Source: Escherichia coli (GTDB lineage Bacteria; Pseudomonadota; Gammaproteobacteria; Enterobacterales; Enterobacteriaceae). Taken from it: 64,000 bases of DNA. Below, piece by piece: positions 10,873 to 21,298 of this stretch (the stretch's first letter is position 1; each line of letters opens with the position of its first letter). Where the stretch lies: NCBI RefSeq assembly GCF_024298765.1, contig NZ_CP101210.1. One strand, given 5' to 3'. A program made the position numbers and the translations under genes. The notes under the pieces were generated by a model, which saw nothing but the letters and a program-made list of their open reading frames with translations, did not search any database and was not told the origin of the DNA.

Positions 10873-10899
10873 TTGTGCAAATTTGTGCACTATTGTGCA
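10873..10899 (+). promoter_or_regulatory. three direct TTGTGCA repeats at 10-bp spacing with a nearby TATAGT; candidate operator/promoter of the cargo operon
   Basis: TTGTGCA at about 10873, 10883 and 10893 (a fourth copy near 10801); TATAGT at about 10904; about 80 nt upstream of the cargo ATG. Confidence 0.35.
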
Positions 10900-10978
10900 T
10901 TTGTATAGTGAAAAAAATATAGCAGAAAGTATACTTAGCGCCTTGTGGGCTACGTTAACTTTGCAGGAACATTTGGAA

Positions 10979-12358
10979 ATGAAAAAAATCAATAAAGAAG
11001 ATTCTAAAAGAACCTTTTTACGTGGATGGTTGCGATTTCTTCGTAGCGTTGAGAGAGCTAAGAAAAAAAAGCCTGCGCAAGAGAAAAATGGTAGTCTTCG
11101 TTTTTCCGATGAAACAACTCCTGTCCAAAACCAAGTCGCTACGTTCATTGAAAATATATCGATTATAAAAGAGTATGACTCATCAATTCTTCGTCGTGAC
11201 GCAGAGAAGATATTAATACCTAAATATTTTGACTTATATGACAATCCAGAGAAATCTCTGCTATTTATTAGTGCAGCCACAAAATTAATTGCAAGAGGTA
11301 AATGGAAATCATATATTTTTGATTACAAGAAAAACAAAAAACACTGTCTTGGTCTTGAGTGTCTATTAGGTGTTGCTCTTACAGCAGCAAGGCAAAGTAA
11401 TATAAATTTCAAAGATACGATGATTCAGATTAATGGTATCTACCCTAAAGATGAACAGTATCTTGAAATTATCAGGGATGTCGGGCTTGTAAAAGAGATT
11501 AGTAATGCTGCACCAGGTAAAGTTCTGGACTCTACTGAAGCATCGAAAAAAGCGAATCCGAAGAAACGAATCTTCTCTGCTGATAGTATCGGAAAGGAGA
11601 ATGCTTCTGCCTTTGCCCATGACAGAAAAAATGTCACTGCTGAAAAATTTACCGCATACATAAACGAATGCTTAAATGATCATAATTTAAAACTTGTACA
11701 TGAGGCAGAAAAGCATTTAACTTCCTGCATGGGGGAACTCCTTGATAATGCGGAGCGGCATTGTGGGTTAGAGCAACGCCCACGCTGGTATTTGAGAGGT
11801 TTTGTTAATAATAACGTACGAAACCCCATATGTGAGTTGGCTGTTTTCAATTTTGGGAAAACTATCAGCGAAACTTTTGATAATTTACCTGAGGATCATT
11901 TTTCATTAAGTCAACAAGTTAATCCATACATAAATAAGCATATTAAGAAAAAGGGTATGTTTAAGGAAGGATTAACAACAGTAGCGGCCTTGCAAGGGCG
12001 GGTGAGTTGTAAAAACGAGAAAGAAACTGACAGTTCTGGCACCGGAACAATTGAATTATTGAAGTTATTTCAAGATATGCATGATAATCTTAAAAAAATG
12101 GGAAGAGATATTAAAGGTGGGATAAAAATGACTTTAATATCTGGTAGTACTCATATTAACTTTGATGGATCATATAAATTAAAGCAAAGGTTGGTTAATG
12201 ACGAGGAAAGTGACATTTTTACTTACCCTTTTAATGATGTAGGGCTTGAATCTGAACCGGATCGCAACTATCTTAAGCGTATGAAGGATGCTCGATTTCC
12301 TGGAGTTATGATCAATATTCGTTTTCCTCTACCAGAAAACGCCACCCAGCGAACTTGA
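10979..12358 (+). CDS. cargo gene 1: GHKL-type ATPase / anti-sigma-factor-kinase-like protein, 459 aa from ATG 10979
   Basis: N-box-like ELLDNAERHCG, possible degenerate G1 (FNFGKT) and G2 (SSGTGT) boxes; AT-rich; AGGAA 8 nt before ATG; the track start at 10883 is a TTG. Confidence 0.6.
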   Translation: MKKINKEDSKRTFLRGWLRFLRSVERAKKKKPAQEKNGSLRFSDETTPVQNQVATFIENISIIKEYDSSILRRDAEKILIPKYFDLYDNPEKSLLFISAATKLIARGKWKSYIFDYKKNKKHCLGLECLLGVALTAARQSNINFKDTMIQINGIYPKDEQYLEIIRDVGLVKEISNAAPGKVLDSTEASKKANPKKRIFSADSIGKENASAFAHDRKNVTAEKFTAYINECLNDHNLKLVHEAEKHLTSCMGELLDNAERHCGLEQRPRWYLRGFVNNNVRNPICELAVFNFGKTISETFDNLPEDHFSLSQQVNPYINKHIKKKGMFKEGLTTVAALQGRVSCKNEKETDSSGTGTIELLKLFQDMHDNLKKMGRDIKGGIKMTLISGSTHINFDGSYKLKQRLVNDEESDIFTYPFNDVGLESEPDRNYLKRMKDARFPGVMINIRFPLPENATQRT

Positions 12359-12368
12359 GGACAGGTAC

Positions 12369-12713
12369 ATGAAAATGGCTGACATCACCATAGATTTCAA
12401 TAAGTTAGTAAAAGATAGTAACAAGAAACTTTTTGCTGGACGTTCTAATGGGCGCCAGGCCTATGATTACTTTAATATAGGGAAATTTTGCACAACCAGT
12501 AATGATAGATTATATCTATTGATCCCCAAGGGAATTGTTGTATCAAGCTCATACTTTCTAGGTATGCTTGAAACGGTTTTGCCGAAATTTTCTTCGCCTA
12601 GCGAATTTTATAGTCGCACTGTACTTGATGGTCGTGAATATAAAGAAGGTATGCTTTCTGAATTAGATAGAGCTGTAAGGAGAGGCTTACATAAAAATGT
12701 TCCCTTCTTTTAA
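12369..12713 (+). CDS. cargo gene 2: small STAS-like (anti-sigma-factor-antagonist-like) protein, 114 aa
   Basis: GAGGA 8 nt before ATG, overlapping the stop of gene 1; segment LLIPKGIVVSSSYFLGMLETV recalls the SSSF-type STAS-like signature. Confidence 0.55.
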   Translation: MKMADITIDFNKLVKDSNKKLFAGRSNGRQAYDYFNIGKFCTTSNDRLYLLIPKGIVVSSSYFLGMLETVLPKFSSPSEFYSRTVLDGREYKEGMLSELDRAVRRGLHKNVPFF

Positions 12714-13506
12714 AAATATTTTTCAAATCAAAATGACAGCGCTGTCTGTCATTTTTTTTATATTCCCCGCAGCTTGCTCTGTGACAGATTTTTCCAATAA
12801 AGAAAACATTGAATGTAATGAGTCACTTTATCCAAACACGCCTTTTTATATTTCCGATTCAGGACTTAGTGGTATATCATCACCGTTTTTGTTATCCGGA
12901 AACCCGAATGATGGCTTGATGTTTTGTGAAAAGGCAAACGACACCTTTCATAAGTTATCTCTGGCAAGGGATAACAAAAAAGATTTATTTACTAATTATT
13001 TCAAAGATGTTCCAAATTCCTATGATATATATAATATTGTAAAGGTTCCGGAAAATGGTCCAGAGTGGATTTCTATTGGCATCTCTTTATTTGCTTTAGT
13101 TTCATCCTTTGTTATTCCTTGTGTTCAACATAGAAAAGAACGTAAAGAAGCTATTAATGAAGGGTATTGGGTAAGAGAAGTAATTATGCCTAAAATTAAT
13201 GGGTTGGCATTCGATGTTGTGCAAAGTTTTAAAAACTCCATGGCATTATCAGAAGAGGAGTTTCTTAGTGTATTCAGTAATACTCTTTTACCAAAACTAG
13301 GAGAGTTACGGGATTCATTATATTTGTTTAATAGTTTTCCAGAATTAAATGCAGATATTGAAAATCTAGAAAGTATTTGTGACTCCTTGGAGGAAGAAGT
13401 TTCCAATCATATAGACTCGCCTAATGAAATAAGAATTTCTGATATATCAATGTTTCATTCCAAATTAATACAGAAATTAATTTTACTTCATAAGAAGATA
13501 GGTTGA
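12697..13506 (+). CDS. cargo gene 3: membrane protein, candidate effector (N-terminal signal/anchor, one internal TM, acidic C-terminal domain)
   Basis: Overlaps gene 2 by 17 nt; hydrophobic N-terminus TALSVIFFIFPAAC and TM WISIGISLFALVSSFVIPCV; AT-rich. Confidence 0.6.
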   Translation: MFPSFKNIFQIKMTALSVIFFIFPAACSVTDFSNKENIECNESLYPNTPFYISDSGLSGISSPFLLSGNPNDGLMFCEKANDTFHKLSLARDNKKDLFTNYFKDVPNSYDIYNIVKVPENGPEWISIGISLFALVSSFVIPCVQHRKERKEAINEGYWVREVIMPKINGLAFDVVQSFKNSMALSEEEFLSVFSNTLLPKLGELRDSLYLFNSFPELNADIENLESICDSLEEEVSNHIDSPNEIRISDISMFHSKLIQKLILLHKKIG

Positions 13507-16344: not shown

Positions 16345-16703
16345 TCCTGCGAGAAGAGGGTGGAAAGGCGGTTAAATTCAGCGGTGTATTCACTCAGCGA
16401 GGCACACCCGCCAGCAGTGTGATGCGCCAGCATTGCCGCAAATACGGAGGTCGGGGAGTCGTAATACGCCAGCAGTGATTCGCCATGCGGTGTCAGGCAG
16501 CGCAACGCCAGCCCGTGTGGTGTTAAGTCCACGCGGTAGCAGTCGTCTACTGTGAAATAAAGGGTGTCTGCATTCTCCGGTTTTGTAGTGCGTGCTCTGT
16601 TGTCACGACTACGGATGTAGAGATCAAATAATCCCTGAAGAACGGGAGCCAGACGGGTGTCCTGTGTGCGCACCCATCTTGTGAAGTCATGAGCGTCAAT
16701 CAT
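16314..16703 (-). CDS. hypothetical phage early protein
   Basis: 129-aa ORF immediately upstream of A on the same strand, overlapping its start. Confidence 0.5.
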   Translation of the reverse strand: MIDAHDFTRWVRTQDTRLAPVLQGLFDLYIRSRDNRARTTKPENADTLYFTVDDCYRVDLTPHGLALRCLTPHGESLLAYYDSPTSVFAAMLAHHTAGGCASLSEYTAEFNRLSTLFSQEWQRVTGYQP

Positions 16704-16811
16704 GCTGCAATTCTCTCTACTAAGGATGTGCGAAGGCTTCCTGCCAAAAAACTCAGAAGCGGTCGGTTACAGGAATTGGCGTTCTACGAGTAGTTATTGC
16801 TGGCTTGAGGT

Positions 16812-17030
16812 TCATTTCTGTTTAATTCCGTGCATGCTGTAGAAGAAATCAAAAGTGCTATCTATGCGTATCATGAGCTCACGCTGTATCGCTTCTGGTG
16901 TTTCTGGTTCACCTGGCGAGCCAACTCCCGCGAAGAAATCACCGATCTCGCTTTTAATAAGTGCCTTTAGCGTTGCTGAGGAATTCAGGTGTGTGCGGTG
17001 ATGTTTGCGAGTGATTCTTCTCCTGCTCAT
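16812..17030 (-). CDS. hypothetical phage early protein
   Basis: 72-aa ORF in the early operon; overlaps the upstream ORF stop by 4 nt. Confidence 0.45.
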   Translation of the reverse strand: MSRRRITRKHHRTHLNSSATLKALIKSEIGDFFAGVGSPGEPETPEAIQRELMIRIDSTFDFFYSMHGIKQK

Positions 17031-17230
17031 TTGCGTGGATCCTGTACCTGTCGGATAAGATTCACCCGCGCCACATTAGTGGCGCAGAAGTAAGTACCGT
17101 CAGTGAGATAGATGTGGTGTGCATCCTTTTCTGAGCGGTGTTTGTCGATTGTGGTAATCAGGCGTTCGTCGACTTCGTATTCACGTCCTCTGGAAGTGAA
17201 ACGAACGACAGGAAAATGCTTAATTGCCAT
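17027..17230 (-). CDS. hypothetical phage early protein
   Basis: 67-aa ORF in the early operon. Confidence 0.5.
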   Translation of the reverse strand: MAIKHFPVVRFTSRGREYEVDERLITTIDKHRSEKDAHHIYLTDGTYFCATNVARVNLIRQVQDPRK

Positions 17231-17317
17231 TACACCTCCTGGGCGTGTGCGAATACCTCCGCGAATGCGGATTGTTTTTACATTTTCTTATTTAACCTAG
17301 GGTTTTTATTTGCGCTG

Positions 17318-17431
17318 TTATTCGCCAGTGAAAAAGCGGTCAATCTTTTTTACTGAACGAATAATTCGCATAATCCCAATGGCGCAGACCACCGAAATAA
17401 TCAGAACAAGCCATGAGATAAATATACTCAT
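17318..17431 (-). CDS. small hydrophobic membrane peptide (37 aa)
   Basis: ATG at 17431 overlaps the stop of the upstream ORF (ATGA); MSIFISWLVLIISVVCAIGIMRIIRSVKKIDRFFTGE is a single TM helix with a basic tail. Confidence 0.35.
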   Translation of the reverse strand: MSIFISWLVLIISVVCAIGIMRIIRSVKKIDRFFTGE

Positions 17432-17670
17432 GCAATATTCCCCAGCTTATACGGTTCAATATGCTCCCCGCATTCTGCGGCACAGATCAGCTCGGAAAGT
17501 TCGTTAAGTGCATCCAGATCATCAGCGTAAAAAGCCACGTCATACAGACTCCGGATTGCCCTGGTTAATGAGTCACGGGCTGCACGTTCAGCATGAGTAC
17601 CTGATGCACTTAAGCGAAAATAAAAACGCTCAAGTGCTTTGTTTATGAGAGTCTTATATTCTTTGCCCAT
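17428..17670 (-). CDS. hypothetical phage early protein
   Basis: 80-aa ORF in the early operon. Confidence 0.5.
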   Translation of the reverse strand: MGKEYKTLINKALERFYFRLSASGTHAERAARDSLTRAIRSLYDVAFYADDLDALNELSELICAAECGEHIEPYKLGNIA

Positions 17671-17682
17671 CGCAACGCCCTT

Positions 17683-17959
17683 TAATCTGCTTTCTGAATT
17701 TCAGCTTCTGAATCCATGCAGATAATTTCGATATAGGGTTCATCGCCATTAACCTGACGAGCTTTTTCAGCTTCGTTAATTATTTCGCGAACGGTCTGGT
17801 ACGGAAGTTCTACTGTCAGGCGCGTACCGTTCAGATAAACGTAGGTAGCTGCATTTTTTCAGATGGAACTACTCCGTCAATAGCTGATGCGCGTAATAAC
17901 AGTTCACCGCGAAAATCAATAAAGCGGATAAATACACCTTGTGCATGGTCTTTAGTCAT
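17683..17959 (-). pseudogene. small early gene (about 92 aa if repaired) interrupted by a 1-nt frameshift in an A6/T6 run
   Basis: ATG at about 17959 gives 41 codons then stop; an out-of-frame continuation with no start codon runs to TAA at about 17683; adding one A in the homopolymer near 17854-17859 joins them. Confidence 0.4.
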
Positions 17960-17969
17960 AAAGCACCTG

Positions 17970-18320
17970 TTATAAATCAGCCTGTTTAATAAAACTTTGC
18001 CCGCGAAGCAAACGATCGACTGTGCGCAGTGCTTCGTACAATGTAAAATCCTGCCCGAACTGATTATCGCCGTTGCTTAATGCAAAAATGCGGTTTCCGG
18101 TAAACGGATTGCGTGAGCATCTGTGAACCACTATTCCAGCTTTCTCAATCAGCCAGGTGTGTTCGCCGATTTGTTTTACAGCGTGCCCATCTGGTGTTGC
18201 GTGCGTCTCGTTCAGGTTATAGCGATTGTTACTACGTGATGCACTGGTAGCGACGTGGTGTATATGGCGTTCTACGCCATTACGAAATTTGGAGTATGGA
18301 TTATTAGCGTGTTTTTTCAT
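17970..18320 (-). CDS. hypothetical phage early protein
   Basis: 116-aa ORF in the early operon downstream of the cox-like gene. Confidence 0.5.
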   Translation of the reverse strand: MKKHANNPYSKFRNGVERHIHHVATSASRSNNRYNLNETHATPDGHAVKQIGEHTWLIEKAGIVVHRCSRNPFTGNRIFALSNGDNQFGQDFTLYEALRTVDRLLRGQSFIKQADL

Positions 18321-18341
18321 GATGATGCTCTGTTCATTGTT

Positions 18342-18545
18342 TTAGCTGTTAGCCAAAGCGTCTTTTAACATCGCCACAAGGTTTACTTCAGGCTTTTCCA
18401 TTTTGGCACGTTTGGGGCGGATAATAATTCGACCGTCAGCCAACATCTTTTTGCATGTATTAAGAGGGATACCTGTTATCTCTGCATATTTCTGCAGGGA
18501 TACATAGGGGGCATTCACATTGATATTGATGGTTATACCTGACAT
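18342..18545 (-). CDS. Cox-like small DNA-binding protein (excisionase/early regulator)
   Basis: 67 aa; YVSLQKYAEITGIPLNTCKKMLADGRI resembles the Cox-type helix-turn-helix pattern; position in the early operon. Confidence 0.55.
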   Translation of the reverse strand: MSGITININVNAPYVSLQKYAEITGIPLNTCKKMLADGRIIIRPKRAKMEKPEVNLVAMLKDALANS

Positions 18546-18561
18546 CCCACTAGCCTCCTGA

Positions 18562-18768
18562 TCAGGAAGATTTGTTTTGTTCTTTCTGGGTTAGCTCTAG
18601 GCCGCGAAGGAAGATCATGCGCGCCATGTTAGAGGATGAGCGTTGTTCTTTAGTTGCCATTTCATCAATGACGGCTCGCTCTTCGAGGGACAGCCGAAGT
18701 GCCAGTCTTGGACCTGTGGCGGTGTTACGCGGAATGCGTGATCTGGTATCGTGAAGAACTTGTTTCAT
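18562..18768 (-). CDS. small ribbon-helix-helix-like regulator, first gene of the early operon
   Basis: 68 aa with RLALRLSLEERAVIDEMA; divergent from the repressor gene. Confidence 0.45.
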   Translation of the reverse strand: MKQVLHDTRSRIPRNTATGPRLALRLSLEERAVIDEMATKEQRSSSNMARMIFLRGLELTQKEQNKSS

Positions 18769-18843
18769 AGTGGTATATTGTGATCATCTAATAGCTCGTG
18801 AAATCATTTTGGTATCAAAAAAGATACCTGTCAAGGTTTTTGT
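18769..18843. promoter_or_regulatory. lysis-lysogeny switch region with divergent early and repressor promoters
   Basis: 75-bp AT-rich gap between divergently transcribed early operon and repressor gene, as in P2/186. Confidence 0.5.
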
Positions 18844-19248
18844 ATGAAAAATGATATTGGTCAGCGGTTGCGTGAGGAAAGGGAAAGATTGGGGCTTAGT
18901 CAAGTTGCTATGAGCGAAATTGGTGGAGTCAAAAAGCTAACTCAGCTTAGATATGAGAAAGGAGATAGCTTTCCTGATGCTGCGTATTTGGCAGCGCTGT
19001 CTCGTTTTGGCCTTGATGTTCAGTATGTTGTGTTGGGAATTCACTCACCTGAAACTTATAACGATGATGAGCAGGAGTTGATTACTCGCTTTCGAGCAGC
19101 TTCGTTAGATGTAAAAAACGCGGTGATCGGGGCTTTAAAAAGTGCGGGCAGTGAAAAGGAAACTCAGCCATCAGGGCGTGAGTTAAATATTTCTGGTGGT
19201 AATAACCGTATCGCTGGTCGTGACTATAACGAAACTAAGGGTAGGTGA
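18844..19248 (+). CDS. immunity repressor (CI/C-like, HTH XRE family)
   Basis: 134 aa; N-terminal LREERERLGLSQVAMSEIGGVKKLTQLRYEKG helix-turn-helix; divergent from the early operon. Confidence 0.75.
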   Translation: MKNDIGQRLREERERLGLSQVAMSEIGGVKKLTQLRYEKGDSFPDAAYLAALSRFGLDVQYVVLGIHSPETYNDDEQELITRFRAASLDVKNAVIGALKSAGSEKETQPSGRELNISGGNNRIAGRDYNETKGR

Positions 19249-19263
19249 TAGTAGGGAGGTGAC

Positions 19264-19914
19264 ATGGCCGTCAACTCAAACGGTTCAAACAATCGCGTTG
19301 CTGGGCGTGATTTTCACGAAAAGAATATTCAGATAGAGCGATATGATGGTTCTCATACCGTCAATATCGCAATCCCTTCGAATAATGATGATGACGCTCG
19401 CCCTTTGCTTAAGGCACAGCGTAAGGAGCTAAATAGCTTGGTTGCTGCTATTGCAGAAGCTAGCAATACTGAAGCGTTTATTATTTGGCAAAAAGTACAT
19501 GCGGAGATTGGTGTAGCTGGTATTGATGATATGACAATAAATCAATATAAAACAGCGGAGAGTTTTCTGCATGCAATGCTTGAGCGATGTAAAGATCATG
19601 ATGCCTGTAAGACTCTTGTAAGTTTATTACTACGTAACAGTGAAGACTGTGGACTTCGACAAAAACTTCTGCGGTATTGCCATATCAATTTCGGTACAGG
19701 ACGTTTAAACGATCTTACTCGTTCTCAGTTACAGTCTGCATTGTCGTGGTTAGAGCAACAATCGGTATCAAGCCACACAGAGAATTCGACCTTACCAGAA
19801 GTCCGCCTTCGTGCTTCAGAATTAATCCGATTTTATCCAAAAGAAATAATATTCTTTATCTGCGTAGGGGTTTTGGTAGGCGGAGCCATTTCTAGGATGT
19901 TTTTTAATTTGTAA
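19264..19914 (+). CDS. moron protein with C-terminal membrane anchor, unknown function
   Basis: 216 aa; GGGAGG 6 nt before ATG; AT-rich; C-terminal TM IIFFICVGVLVGGAI; lies between repressor and integrase. Confidence 0.55.
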   Translation: MAVNSNGSNNRVAGRDFHEKNIQIERYDGSHTVNIAIPSNNDDDARPLLKAQRKELNSLVAAIAEASNTEAFIIWQKVHAEIGVAGIDDMTINQYKTAESFLHAMLERCKDHDACKTLVSLLLRNSEDCGLRQKLLRYCHINFGTGRLNDLTRSQLQSALSWLEQQSVSSHTENSTLPEVRLRASELIRFYPKEIIFFICVGVLVGGAISRMFFNL

Positions 19915-19943: not shown

Positions 19944-20291
19944 ATGAAAGTAAAAAAGGTTCAACTATTAGTTGCTTTTTTATCTATGTTTTCTTTTTCC
20001 GCCGTCGCAATGCCTTTTAAAACTATTGAACGTGAGAGTTTCAATGGAGTATGGCCATTTAATACAGATGAGGTTCAATTGCAGTGTCTTGATGGTAATC
20101 CTTATGTGATGAATTTTGACGATAATAAGTTATATGCGCTTACAGGTTTGGCTCGAATAAAAGGTAAAACATTTGGTGCGTTACCGTTAGATAACAATAA
20201 TCCATTTTGGCTAGATAATGATGCCGCCCCTGGGTTAAAAAAGAATCTGGGGGACGTCACTAAGGCTGCATTTGATTTATGTGATAAGTAA
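19944..20291 (+). CDS. secreted/periplasmic moron protein, unknown function
   Basis: 115 aa with signal peptide MKVKKVQLLVAFLSMFSFSAVA and two cysteines; AT-rich. Confidence 0.55.
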   Translation: MKVKKVQLLVAFLSMFSFSAVAMPFKTIERESFNGVWPFNTDEVQLQCLDGNPYVMNFDDNKLYALTGLARIKGKTFGALPLDNNNPFWLDNDAAPGLKKNLGDVTKAAFDLCDK

Positions 20292-20296
20292 CAAAG

Positions 20297-21298
20297 ATGT
20301 CGGTTCGTAAGATTCCATCAGGTAAATGGCTTTGCGAATGTTATCCCTACGGAGCATCGGGAAAACGCATTCGTAAACAGTTTGCGACAAAAAGTGAGGC
20401 GCTCTCTTATGAGCGCCGTTTAATGAATAGTAGAGTTGGAGACGAGTTTCAAGATGGTTCTGGTCCTCGTCTTTCTGAGTTGATTGCTCGTTGGTTTGAG
20501 ATGTACGGCAAAACCTTGTCCTCTGGTGCAGAGCGCAAAGTCAAACTTGAGGCGATTTGTTCTAGGCTGGGAGATCCATTTGCTTCTCAGTTTGACAAAA
20601 ATATGTTTGCTACTTATCGGGAAAGAAGGCTATCAGGAGAATGGAATCCCAAGGGGAAGAAAAAACTTAGTGAAGCAACCGTTAATCGCGAGCAGTCATA
20701 TCTACATGCTGTTTTTGCCGAACTGAAGCGCCTTGGGGAGTGGTCTGGTGAAAACCCCCTGACTGGAATTCGCAAGTTTCGTGAGGAAGAAAAGGAGCTG
20801 GCGTTTCTGTATGTAGATGAGATTGAACGCCTTTTGATTGCGTGTGATGAGTCACGGAATAAAGATTTGGGGGTTGTTGTCCGTATTGGGCTTGCGACTG
20901 GTGCTCGGTGGAGTGAAGCAGAAGGATTAAAGCAATCTCAAGTACTGCCCGGTCGAATCACATTTGTTAAAACTAAAGGAAAGAAGAACCGCACTGTACC
21001 GATTTCACCTCAATTGCAGGCTATGCTTCCTAAAAAACGAGGAGCGCTATTTTCACCATGTTATGAGGCTTTTGACGCTGCAATTAAGAGAGCGAAGATA
21101 GAGCTCCCTGATGGGCAATTAACTCATGTGCTACGTCACACGTTTGCTAGTCATTTTATGATGCGGGGCGGAAATATTCTTGTGTTGCAAAAAATACTGG
21201 GGCATAGCGATATAAAAATGACTATGCGTTATGCGCATTTTGCTCCGGGTCATTTAGAGGCTGCTGTTGAATTAAACCCTTTTGACAATAGAGGGTAA
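20297..21298 (+). CDS. int: tyrosine-type site-specific integrase
   Basis: 333 aa; C-terminal HVLRHTFASH...ILGHSDIKMTMRYAH catalytic R-H-R-Y pattern; next to the att/tRNA fragment. Confidence 0.9.
   Translation: MSVRKIPSGKWLCECYPYGASGKRIRKQFATKSEALSYERRLMNSRVGDEFQDGSGPRLSELIARWFEMYGKTLSSGAERKVKLEAICSRLGDPFASQFDKNMFATYRERRLSGEWNPKGKKKLSEATVNREQSYLHAVFAELKRLGEWSGENPLTGIRKFREEEKELAFLYVDEIERLLIACDESRNKDLGVVVRIGLATGARWSEAEGLKQSQVLPGRITFVKTKGKKNRTVPISPQLQAMLPKKRGALFSPCYEAFDAAIKRAKIELPDGQLTHVLRHTFASHFMMRGGNILVLQKILGHSDIKMTMRYAHFAPGHLEAAVELNPFDNRG

Follow-up and report, generated by a model that had tools for sequence, protein, structure and literature searches.

The window analysed here, a 64,000-nt stretch of Escherichia coli DNA, carries on its minus strand a 37-codon ORF (ATG at 17431-17429) that encodes MSIFISWLVLIISVVCAIGIMRIIRSVKKIDRFFTGE. 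The product is probably a bitopic inner-membrane microprotein of P88-like prophages, co-translated with the upstream gene DUF4754 and acting at the membrane early in lytic growth. The pattern of substitution among relatives indicates that the ORF is a real protein-coding gene under purifying selection. It is conserved, widely distributed and already present in public annotation, and it belongs to no curated family. The gene is of a familiar kind, namely a phage single-pass microprotein whose start overlaps the upstream gene. The initial annotation of this DNA had described a 37-codon frame whose ATG overlaps the stop of an 80-aa ORF; this description is exact, and the strand, which it left unstated, is the minus strand. 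Features of the region are collected in Table 1.

Table 1. Features of the small gene and its surroundings (window coordinates)
Feature	Position	Strand	Remarks
Small membrane protein gene, 37 codons + stop	17318..17431	-	P88 gp07 orthologue; identical to WP_000021671.1
Predicted transmembrane helix, codons 3-24 (IFISWLVLIISVVCAIGIMRII)	17360..17425	-	KD 2.81, family alignment, AF2 helix
Basic amphipathic tail, codons 25-37 (RSVKKIDRFFTGE), predicted cytoplasmic	17321..17359	-	Hydrophobic moment, charge
DUF4754, 80 aa (PF15946, phrog_2549)	17428..17670	-	Upstream partner gene; predicted all-helical
ATGA, small-gene start overlapping DUF4754 stop	17428..17431	-	Context gcATGAgt
SD-like purine run GGGGAA	17438..17443	-	In DUF4754 3' end, 6-12 nt upstream of ATG
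5-bp hairpin TCCGC-N4-GCGGA	17258..17271	.	In the 87-nt spacer 17231-17317 after the small gene
Promoter-like site TTGACA-17-CAAAAT	18806..18834	-	Facing away from the HTH repressor gene; consensus scan, gene order
Arc-like gene	18768-18562	-	
Cox-like gene	18545-18342	-	
DUF4761	18320-17970	-	
92-aa gene (WP_000158977.1 in relatives)	17680-17960	-	Frameshifted in the window; between DUF4761 and DUF4754
Genes of 67, 72 and 129 aa	67-aa gene: 17230-17027	-	After the 87-nt spacer
GPA-family replication endonuclease, 930 aa	16344-13552	-	
HTH repressor	18844-19248	+	Divergent
Integrase	20297-21298	+	Divergent

Conservation of the small frame

Relatives were compared as 65 distinct DUF4754-to-spacer sequences, drawn from 80 IMG/VR loci, three annotated public records and the window. 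The small frame is open in 64 of them, with a length of 37 aa in 57 and 45 aa in 7, and is broken in 1. Conservation of the reading frame, which the initial annotation had named as a check on its proposal, is thus borne out. Variable sites in the ORF fall on codon positions 3, 1 and 2 in the ratio 18:11:8. Counted in this frame, 22 synonymous and 25 non-synonymous events stand against 25 and 86 sites, respectively (p = 2e-4). Pairwise dN/dS is about 0.25, compared with 2.0 and 0.84 in the other two sense frames. The adjoining spacer is variable at 39 of 74 positions, with a nucleotide diversity (pi) of 0.13 versus 0.05 for the small gene.

A 65-aa ORF on the plus strand (17310-17507) shares its wobble positions with the small gene and yields the same dN/dS, so that the ratio by itself cannot tell the strand. 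However, this antisense ORF is interrupted by stops in 48 of the 65 relatives and was therefore rejected as the conserved frame.

Three deep lineages encode 41-aa peptides that are 51-65% identical to that of the window, next to a DUF4754 neighbour that is merely 25-39% identical. In these lineages pS reaches 0.5-0.77, which is near saturation, and dN/dS of the small gene is 0.11-0.35. The window and P88 copies are separated by a pN of 0.04 and a pS of 0.00. Salmonella enterica CP191473.1 (locus L095) contains at 1741-1893 an uncalled 50-aa ORF, MNCGIPVSVCFSWTVFALSIIAAIAIVRLWRAISKPDKSTDNVINKHNHK, which starts in gtATGA at the DUF4754 stop. It keeps the core FSW...S..A.A..R and ends in an unrelated, hydrophilic tail. 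By its sequence, this ORF is a divergent, unannotated member of the small-peptide family.

Predicted structure and topology of the peptide

Residues 3-21 of the peptide have a mean Kyte-Doolittle value of 2.81 (19-aa). As a chance set, every ORF of 30-60 aa that begins with ATG was taken from the six reading frames of the window (n = 215); a value of 2.5 or more is attained by only two of these, and the small gene has the highest. The N-terminus is uncharged and the net charge of the C-terminal side is +3, in keeping with the single transmembrane (TM) helix and basic tail ascribed to the peptide in the initial annotation. Residues 22-35 have a helical hydrophobic moment of 0.87. AlphaFold2, supplied with the family alignment, predicts a single helix spanning residues 2-34 (pLDDT 82.6). 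Apart from M1, the residues that are invariant in the family are S6, W7, L10, A17, G19, I23 and I24 in the predicted TM helix, and K28, I30 and F34 in the tail.

Given the uncharged N-terminus and the positive C-side, the positive-inside rule predicts an N-out/C-in topology. The membrane would be crossed by about 22 residues, leaving on the cytoplasmic side a basic, amphipathic helix whose hydrophobic face is invariant. The tail tolerates replacement, as seen in the Salmonella copy and in the 45-aa variants found on hundreds of contigs. The latter originate in a T5 run within the tail codons (17331-17335), where a one-base change swaps the last four residues.

Pairing with DUF4754

The 4-nt overlap between the DUF4754 stop and the small-gene start is present in all ten loci inspected (the window, P88, EDL933, L084, L085, L088, L092, the Salmonella locus L095, L097 and L098). 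About 6-13 nt before the ATG, every lineage inspected has a purine-rich, SD-like run. The form of this run varies (GGGGAA, GAGGTGG, GAGGAG, GAAGGGGAA or GGTGA), and it persists despite differing C-termini of the upstream protein. The coupling to the upstream gene that had been proposed from the window fits this pattern, since the overlap recurs in every lineage examined. We infer that translation of the small gene is coupled to that of DUF4754 by termination-reinitiation. Ribosomes finishing DUF4754 would re-initiate at the overlapping ATG, and the two proteins would consequently be made together.

Two further links between the frames were considered and rejected. Against a programmed -1 frameshift from DUF4754 into the peptide stands a TAA in the -1 frame six codons before the ATG, and no slippery heptamer is found. 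DUF4754 matches of 103-116 aa, which would suggest a Rosetta-stone fusion, are frameshift read-throughs in the wrong frame, mostly from raw assemblies. Only one of the longer DUF4754 proteins partly enters the peptide frame. Being wrong-frame read-throughs, these proteins provide no evidence of fusion.

Of 50,697 phage records, 14 contain DUF4754, and exactly these 14 contain the small peptide. At L085, a window-type DUF4754 is paired with an L084-type small gene, indicating that recombination can separate the two. The AlphaFold2 model of DUF4754 consists of two long helices (pLDDT 89.7). A Foldseek search of the PDB with this model returned nothing below E = 1, and the PDB profile matches of DUF4754 are designed helical repeats.

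Position in the early operon

The window DNA shares 89-92% identity with Escherichia phage P88, with other Xuanwuvirus phages and with Citrobacter phage phiSM. Judging by gene order, the small gene belongs to the early lytic operon of a P88-like prophage (Xuanwuvirus, Peduoviridae), which agrees with the P2-type early-gene setting first suggested for it. The promoter-proximal block comprises the Arc-like gene, the Cox-like gene, DUF4761, the 92-aa gene, DUF4754, the small gene and the hairpin, and is followed by variable genes and replication protein A. The TTGACA-17-CAAAAT site is the probable early lytic promoter driving this operon. DUF4754 and the peptide would then be expressed after induction or infection, and not in the repressed lysogen.

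The 92-aa gene contains a second promoter-like sequence on the minus strand (17880-17853; TTGACG-16-AAAAAT with TG), some 185 nt upstream of DUF4754. This sequence is poorly conserved, is partly kept in P88 and is the sole nearby sense-strand candidate. If active, it could allow DUF4754 and the small gene to be expressed without the early promoter.

Several irregularities were observed in this part of the prophage. In the 92-aa gene an A7 run reads A6 in the window (around 17851-17857), leaving ORFs of 42 and 31 aa; the frameshift may be genuine or may stem from a sequencing error in the homopolymer. The 68-aa Arc-like product of the first early gene (phrog_3431, E = 1.9e-28; 18562-18768, minus strand) is unannotated in the RefSeq records of EDL933 and NZ_CP195454. 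At the corresponding locus (L099 2156-2362; L001 246-383) the records annotate an opposite-strand 45-aa ORF, WP_001673482.1, instead, which is probably a strand mis-call of the pipeline. The L001 prophage (NZ_CP195454.1) has an ISKpn26 (IS5-like) insertion at 519-1499 in the switch region, and its replication endonuclease is frameshifted. This copy is therefore defective; its small gene is intact.

Comparison with phages 186 and P2

The early operon of phage 186 is ordered apl, cII, fil, dhr, terminator tR1, dispensable genes and A, and that of P2 is ordered cox, orf78, B, terminator, orf80-83 and A. By this order, DUF4754 and the small gene fill the fil/dhr slot. Like fil and dhr, they are the last two small, overlapping genes of non-essential type in the promoter-proximal block, and they are followed by a hairpin, accessory genes and A. 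According to the 186 record, fil inhibits cell division and dhr inhibits the replication of host DNA. In contrast to the small peptide, neither Fil nor Dhr is transmembrane, Dhr being a soluble protein of 66 aa. A likeness by eye between the small-peptide tail and the C-terminus of 186 Fil was rejected, since BLASTP of the peptide against Fil gives no alignment. The resemblance to fil/dhr is thus one of position only, with no sequence similarity.

The spacer hairpin

The hairpin is the only conserved block of the spacer in all lineages inspected, where it reads AAAAC(A/C)ATCCGC-N4-GCGGAGG. It is flanked by an A-run and GGAGG, and its stem shows one compensatory change, from C-G to U-A. The terminators of 186 and P2 likewise have short GC stems, followed by GGGC(A/U)UUCUUUU, and the hairpin resembles their stem-plus-GGGCUUC context. 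Here the sense strand continues after the stem as GG(G)NUUC and, unlike 186 tR1, has no U-run; a role as a sense-strand intrinsic terminator is doubtful for this reason. The antisense strand has a short T-run, so read the hairpin looks like a plus-strand terminator, but no plausible conserved antisense promoter accompanies it. It is possible that the hairpin is the counterpart of 186 tR1 or of the P2 early-operon terminator, or else an RNA stability element.

A mosaic junction lies at about 17244, just upstream of the 67-aa gene, where homology among close relatives often stops and different genes follow. The next gene after the hairpin accordingly varies and may encode 67, 71, 92, 136-138 or 162 aa. 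Phage 569R5 and EDL933 have an extra gene of 411-417 bp past the junction, and the deeper lineages have genes of 92, 71 or 162 aa.

A possible role at the membrane

The leading model is a two-protein module, on account of the strict co-occurrence with DUF4754 and the overlapping start. The peptide may be the membrane-targeting subunit of such an accessory module, a proposal that is plausible although we do not rate it as probable. Early in lytic growth, the module would target the cytoplasmic membrane of the host or one of the host's membrane proteins, as a non-essential, host-modulating function like that of fil/dhr in the same slot of 186. The invariant hydrophobic face of the tail (I23, I24, I30 and F34, with V, I or L at 27) and the conserved [S/A]13xxxA17/G19 pattern are suggestive of contacts with proteins and not of bulk damage to the membrane. 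The case for a partnership is circumstantial, and the two genes recombine independently at L085.

A broader version of the two-protein model is similarly tentative. It assumes an undescribed early module specific to prophages of Xuanwuvirus type, consisting of DUF4754, a microprotein of 37-41 aa and the hairpin. The microprotein would tether DUF4754 to the inner membrane or bind a host membrane protein (e.g. of the division, transport or respiratory machinery), thereby reprogramming the host at the onset of lytic growth. Should the pair prove to be host-directed, the few peduovirus early accessory genes characterised so far (186 fil and dhr) would be joined by one that acts at the membrane, and two orphan families, DUF4754 and the small peptide, would gain a function.

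AcrZ, MgtS, MgrB and CydX are single-pass microproteins of about 30-50 aa in which a conserved TM face binds a larger membrane protein (PMC12648545). The invariant W7, A17 and G19 and the [S/A]13xxxA17 pattern of the small peptide fit this style. Unlike these proteins, the small peptide is phage-encoded, has no homology to them, and is co-transcribed and overlaps at its start with the gene of a soluble, helical partner rather than with that of its target.

Alternative interpretations

Type I toxins such as Fst, Ldr, TisB and Hok are shorter than 60 aa and consist of one hydrophobic helix with a charged C-terminal tail. The small peptide could accordingly be a stand-alone membrane toxin that oligomerises in, or perturbs, the inner membrane and depolarises it in the manner of Fst, Ldr or TisB, either shutting off the host early or killing cells that mis-express it. 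This is unlikely. Size, a single very hydrophobic helix and a charged C-terminal tail match the Fst/Ldr-type build, and the conserved small-xxx-small pattern ([S/A]13...A17) together with G19 could support helix packing. However, no toxin-family or other model in Pfam, NCBIfam, PHROGs or PADLOC matched the peptide, which shows no family homology to the type I toxins. The gene is embedded in an operon and start-overlapped; because its ATG lies inside the preceding stop, it has no 5' UTR. It also lacks a convincing promoter of its own, the nearest sense-strand candidate being the poorly conserved site within the 92-aa gene.

No antisense component of a type I system was found either. A consensus scan found no plus-strand promoter-like site in 16700-19300 (weak or atypical promoters could escape such a scan), and no Rfam RNA was detected near the small ORF at E <= 1. 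Moreover, the antisense-oriented hairpin ends before the ORF, and variable mosaic DNA lies beyond it, which makes a conserved antisense RNA unlikely. The resemblance to small membrane toxins noted in the initial annotation thus stands as regards size and hydrophobicity, and fails as regards a toxin model, an antisense promoter, an Rfam RNA and a conserved promoter of its own.

It is equally doubtful that the peptide is an early superinfection-exclusion or membrane-immunity factor, blocking DNA entry of further phages like T4 Imm or Sp. Its predicted inner-membrane location and early-operon position would suit this role. Between the window and P88, the most variable positions (15, 25 and the tail) change without synonymous change, which would suit a surface engaged in an arms race; the TM core, in contrast, is strongly conserved and not diversifying. 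The periplasmic part, of about two residues, would offer little surface to meet an incoming phage, and expression from a repressed early promoter would leave lysogens unprotected. No PADLOC defence or exclusion model matched.

Least probable by far is a non-functional frame, held open in close prophages by neighbouring or overlapping constraints or by chance: the equal dN/dS of the wobble-sharing antisense frame, the closeness of most relatives and the common frameshifted tails would allow it, but the frame, overlap and TM core survive in the near-saturated deep lineages beside a strongly diverged neighbour, the antisense frame is mostly broken, the adjoining non-coding spacer is far more variable, and the hydrophobic helix and positive-inside pattern are kept in the divergent Salmonella copy.

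Annotation and distribution

The small gene had been put forward as unannotated, which is not the case. Its product is RefSeq WP_000021671.1 ('hypothetical protein'), called as a CDS in NZ_CP195454, which is 100% identical to the window over a 501-bp query around the ORF. The exact peptide sequence occurs on 597 contigs of the protein collection, and each of 60 RefSeq E. coli genomes, sampled evenly, has a CDS under the inner 103 nt of the ORF. The P88 orthologue, gp07 (YP_009113050.1; 92% identical), is named 'membrane protein'; the phage 569R5 record has 'putative membrane protein', and UniRef names relatives 'Prophage membrane protein'. The copy in O157:H7 EDL933 is EDL933_RS33535 (WP_000021655.1). 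P88 gp07, WP_000021671.1 and WP_000021655.1 belong to one family; they occupy the same place, overlap DUF4754 by the same 4 nt and show no substantive difference. The gene is uncalled in RefSeq phage 520873 and in one Salmonella genome.

No model in Pfam, PHROG, NCBIfam or PADLOC matched the peptide, and a PDB sequence search with it returned nothing. A literature search found no paper naming the peptide sequence, its accessions or DUF4754, and nothing that combines CP-933T with ribosome profiling; the P88 genome paper is silent on gp07. The peptide is also absent from the supplements of two EHEC Ribo-seq (translatome) papers, which is what repression of the early operon in lysogens would predict.

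Of 5426 complete E. coli genomes, 1356 carry the 500-bp region around the small gene. Thus, the family is very common in this species (about a quarter of complete genomes) yet uncurated. Carriers include O157:H7 EDL933, ST131-type strains and the Citrobacter rodentium phage phiSM. When 1.84 billion cluster representatives were searched exhaustively with HMMER, eight small-peptide clusters at 50% identity emerged, showing that the family is narrow. A profile search recovered 153 clusters (90% identity), with E values as low as 1e-21; most are named Escherichia and a few Salmonella, Shigella or Citrobacter.

Other genes of the prophage

The late-gene block and the replication gene are separated by two ORFs on the plus strand, of 491 aa (10883-12358) and 269 aa (12697-13506). 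In P2 the tin/old position is a hotspot for anti-phage systems (PMC9122126). Neither ORF has a Pfam or PADLOC match, and both, at the tin/old position, are candidate genes of a cargo or defence system not yet described. The repressor and the integrase flank a 216-aa ORF (19264-19914, plus strand) with a hydrophobic C-terminus and no Pfam match and, following it, a DUF2511 protein of 115 aa with a signal-peptide-like N-terminus (19944-20291, plus strand). These two genes are also found together in EDL933 and look like cargo of the lysogenic-conversion type.
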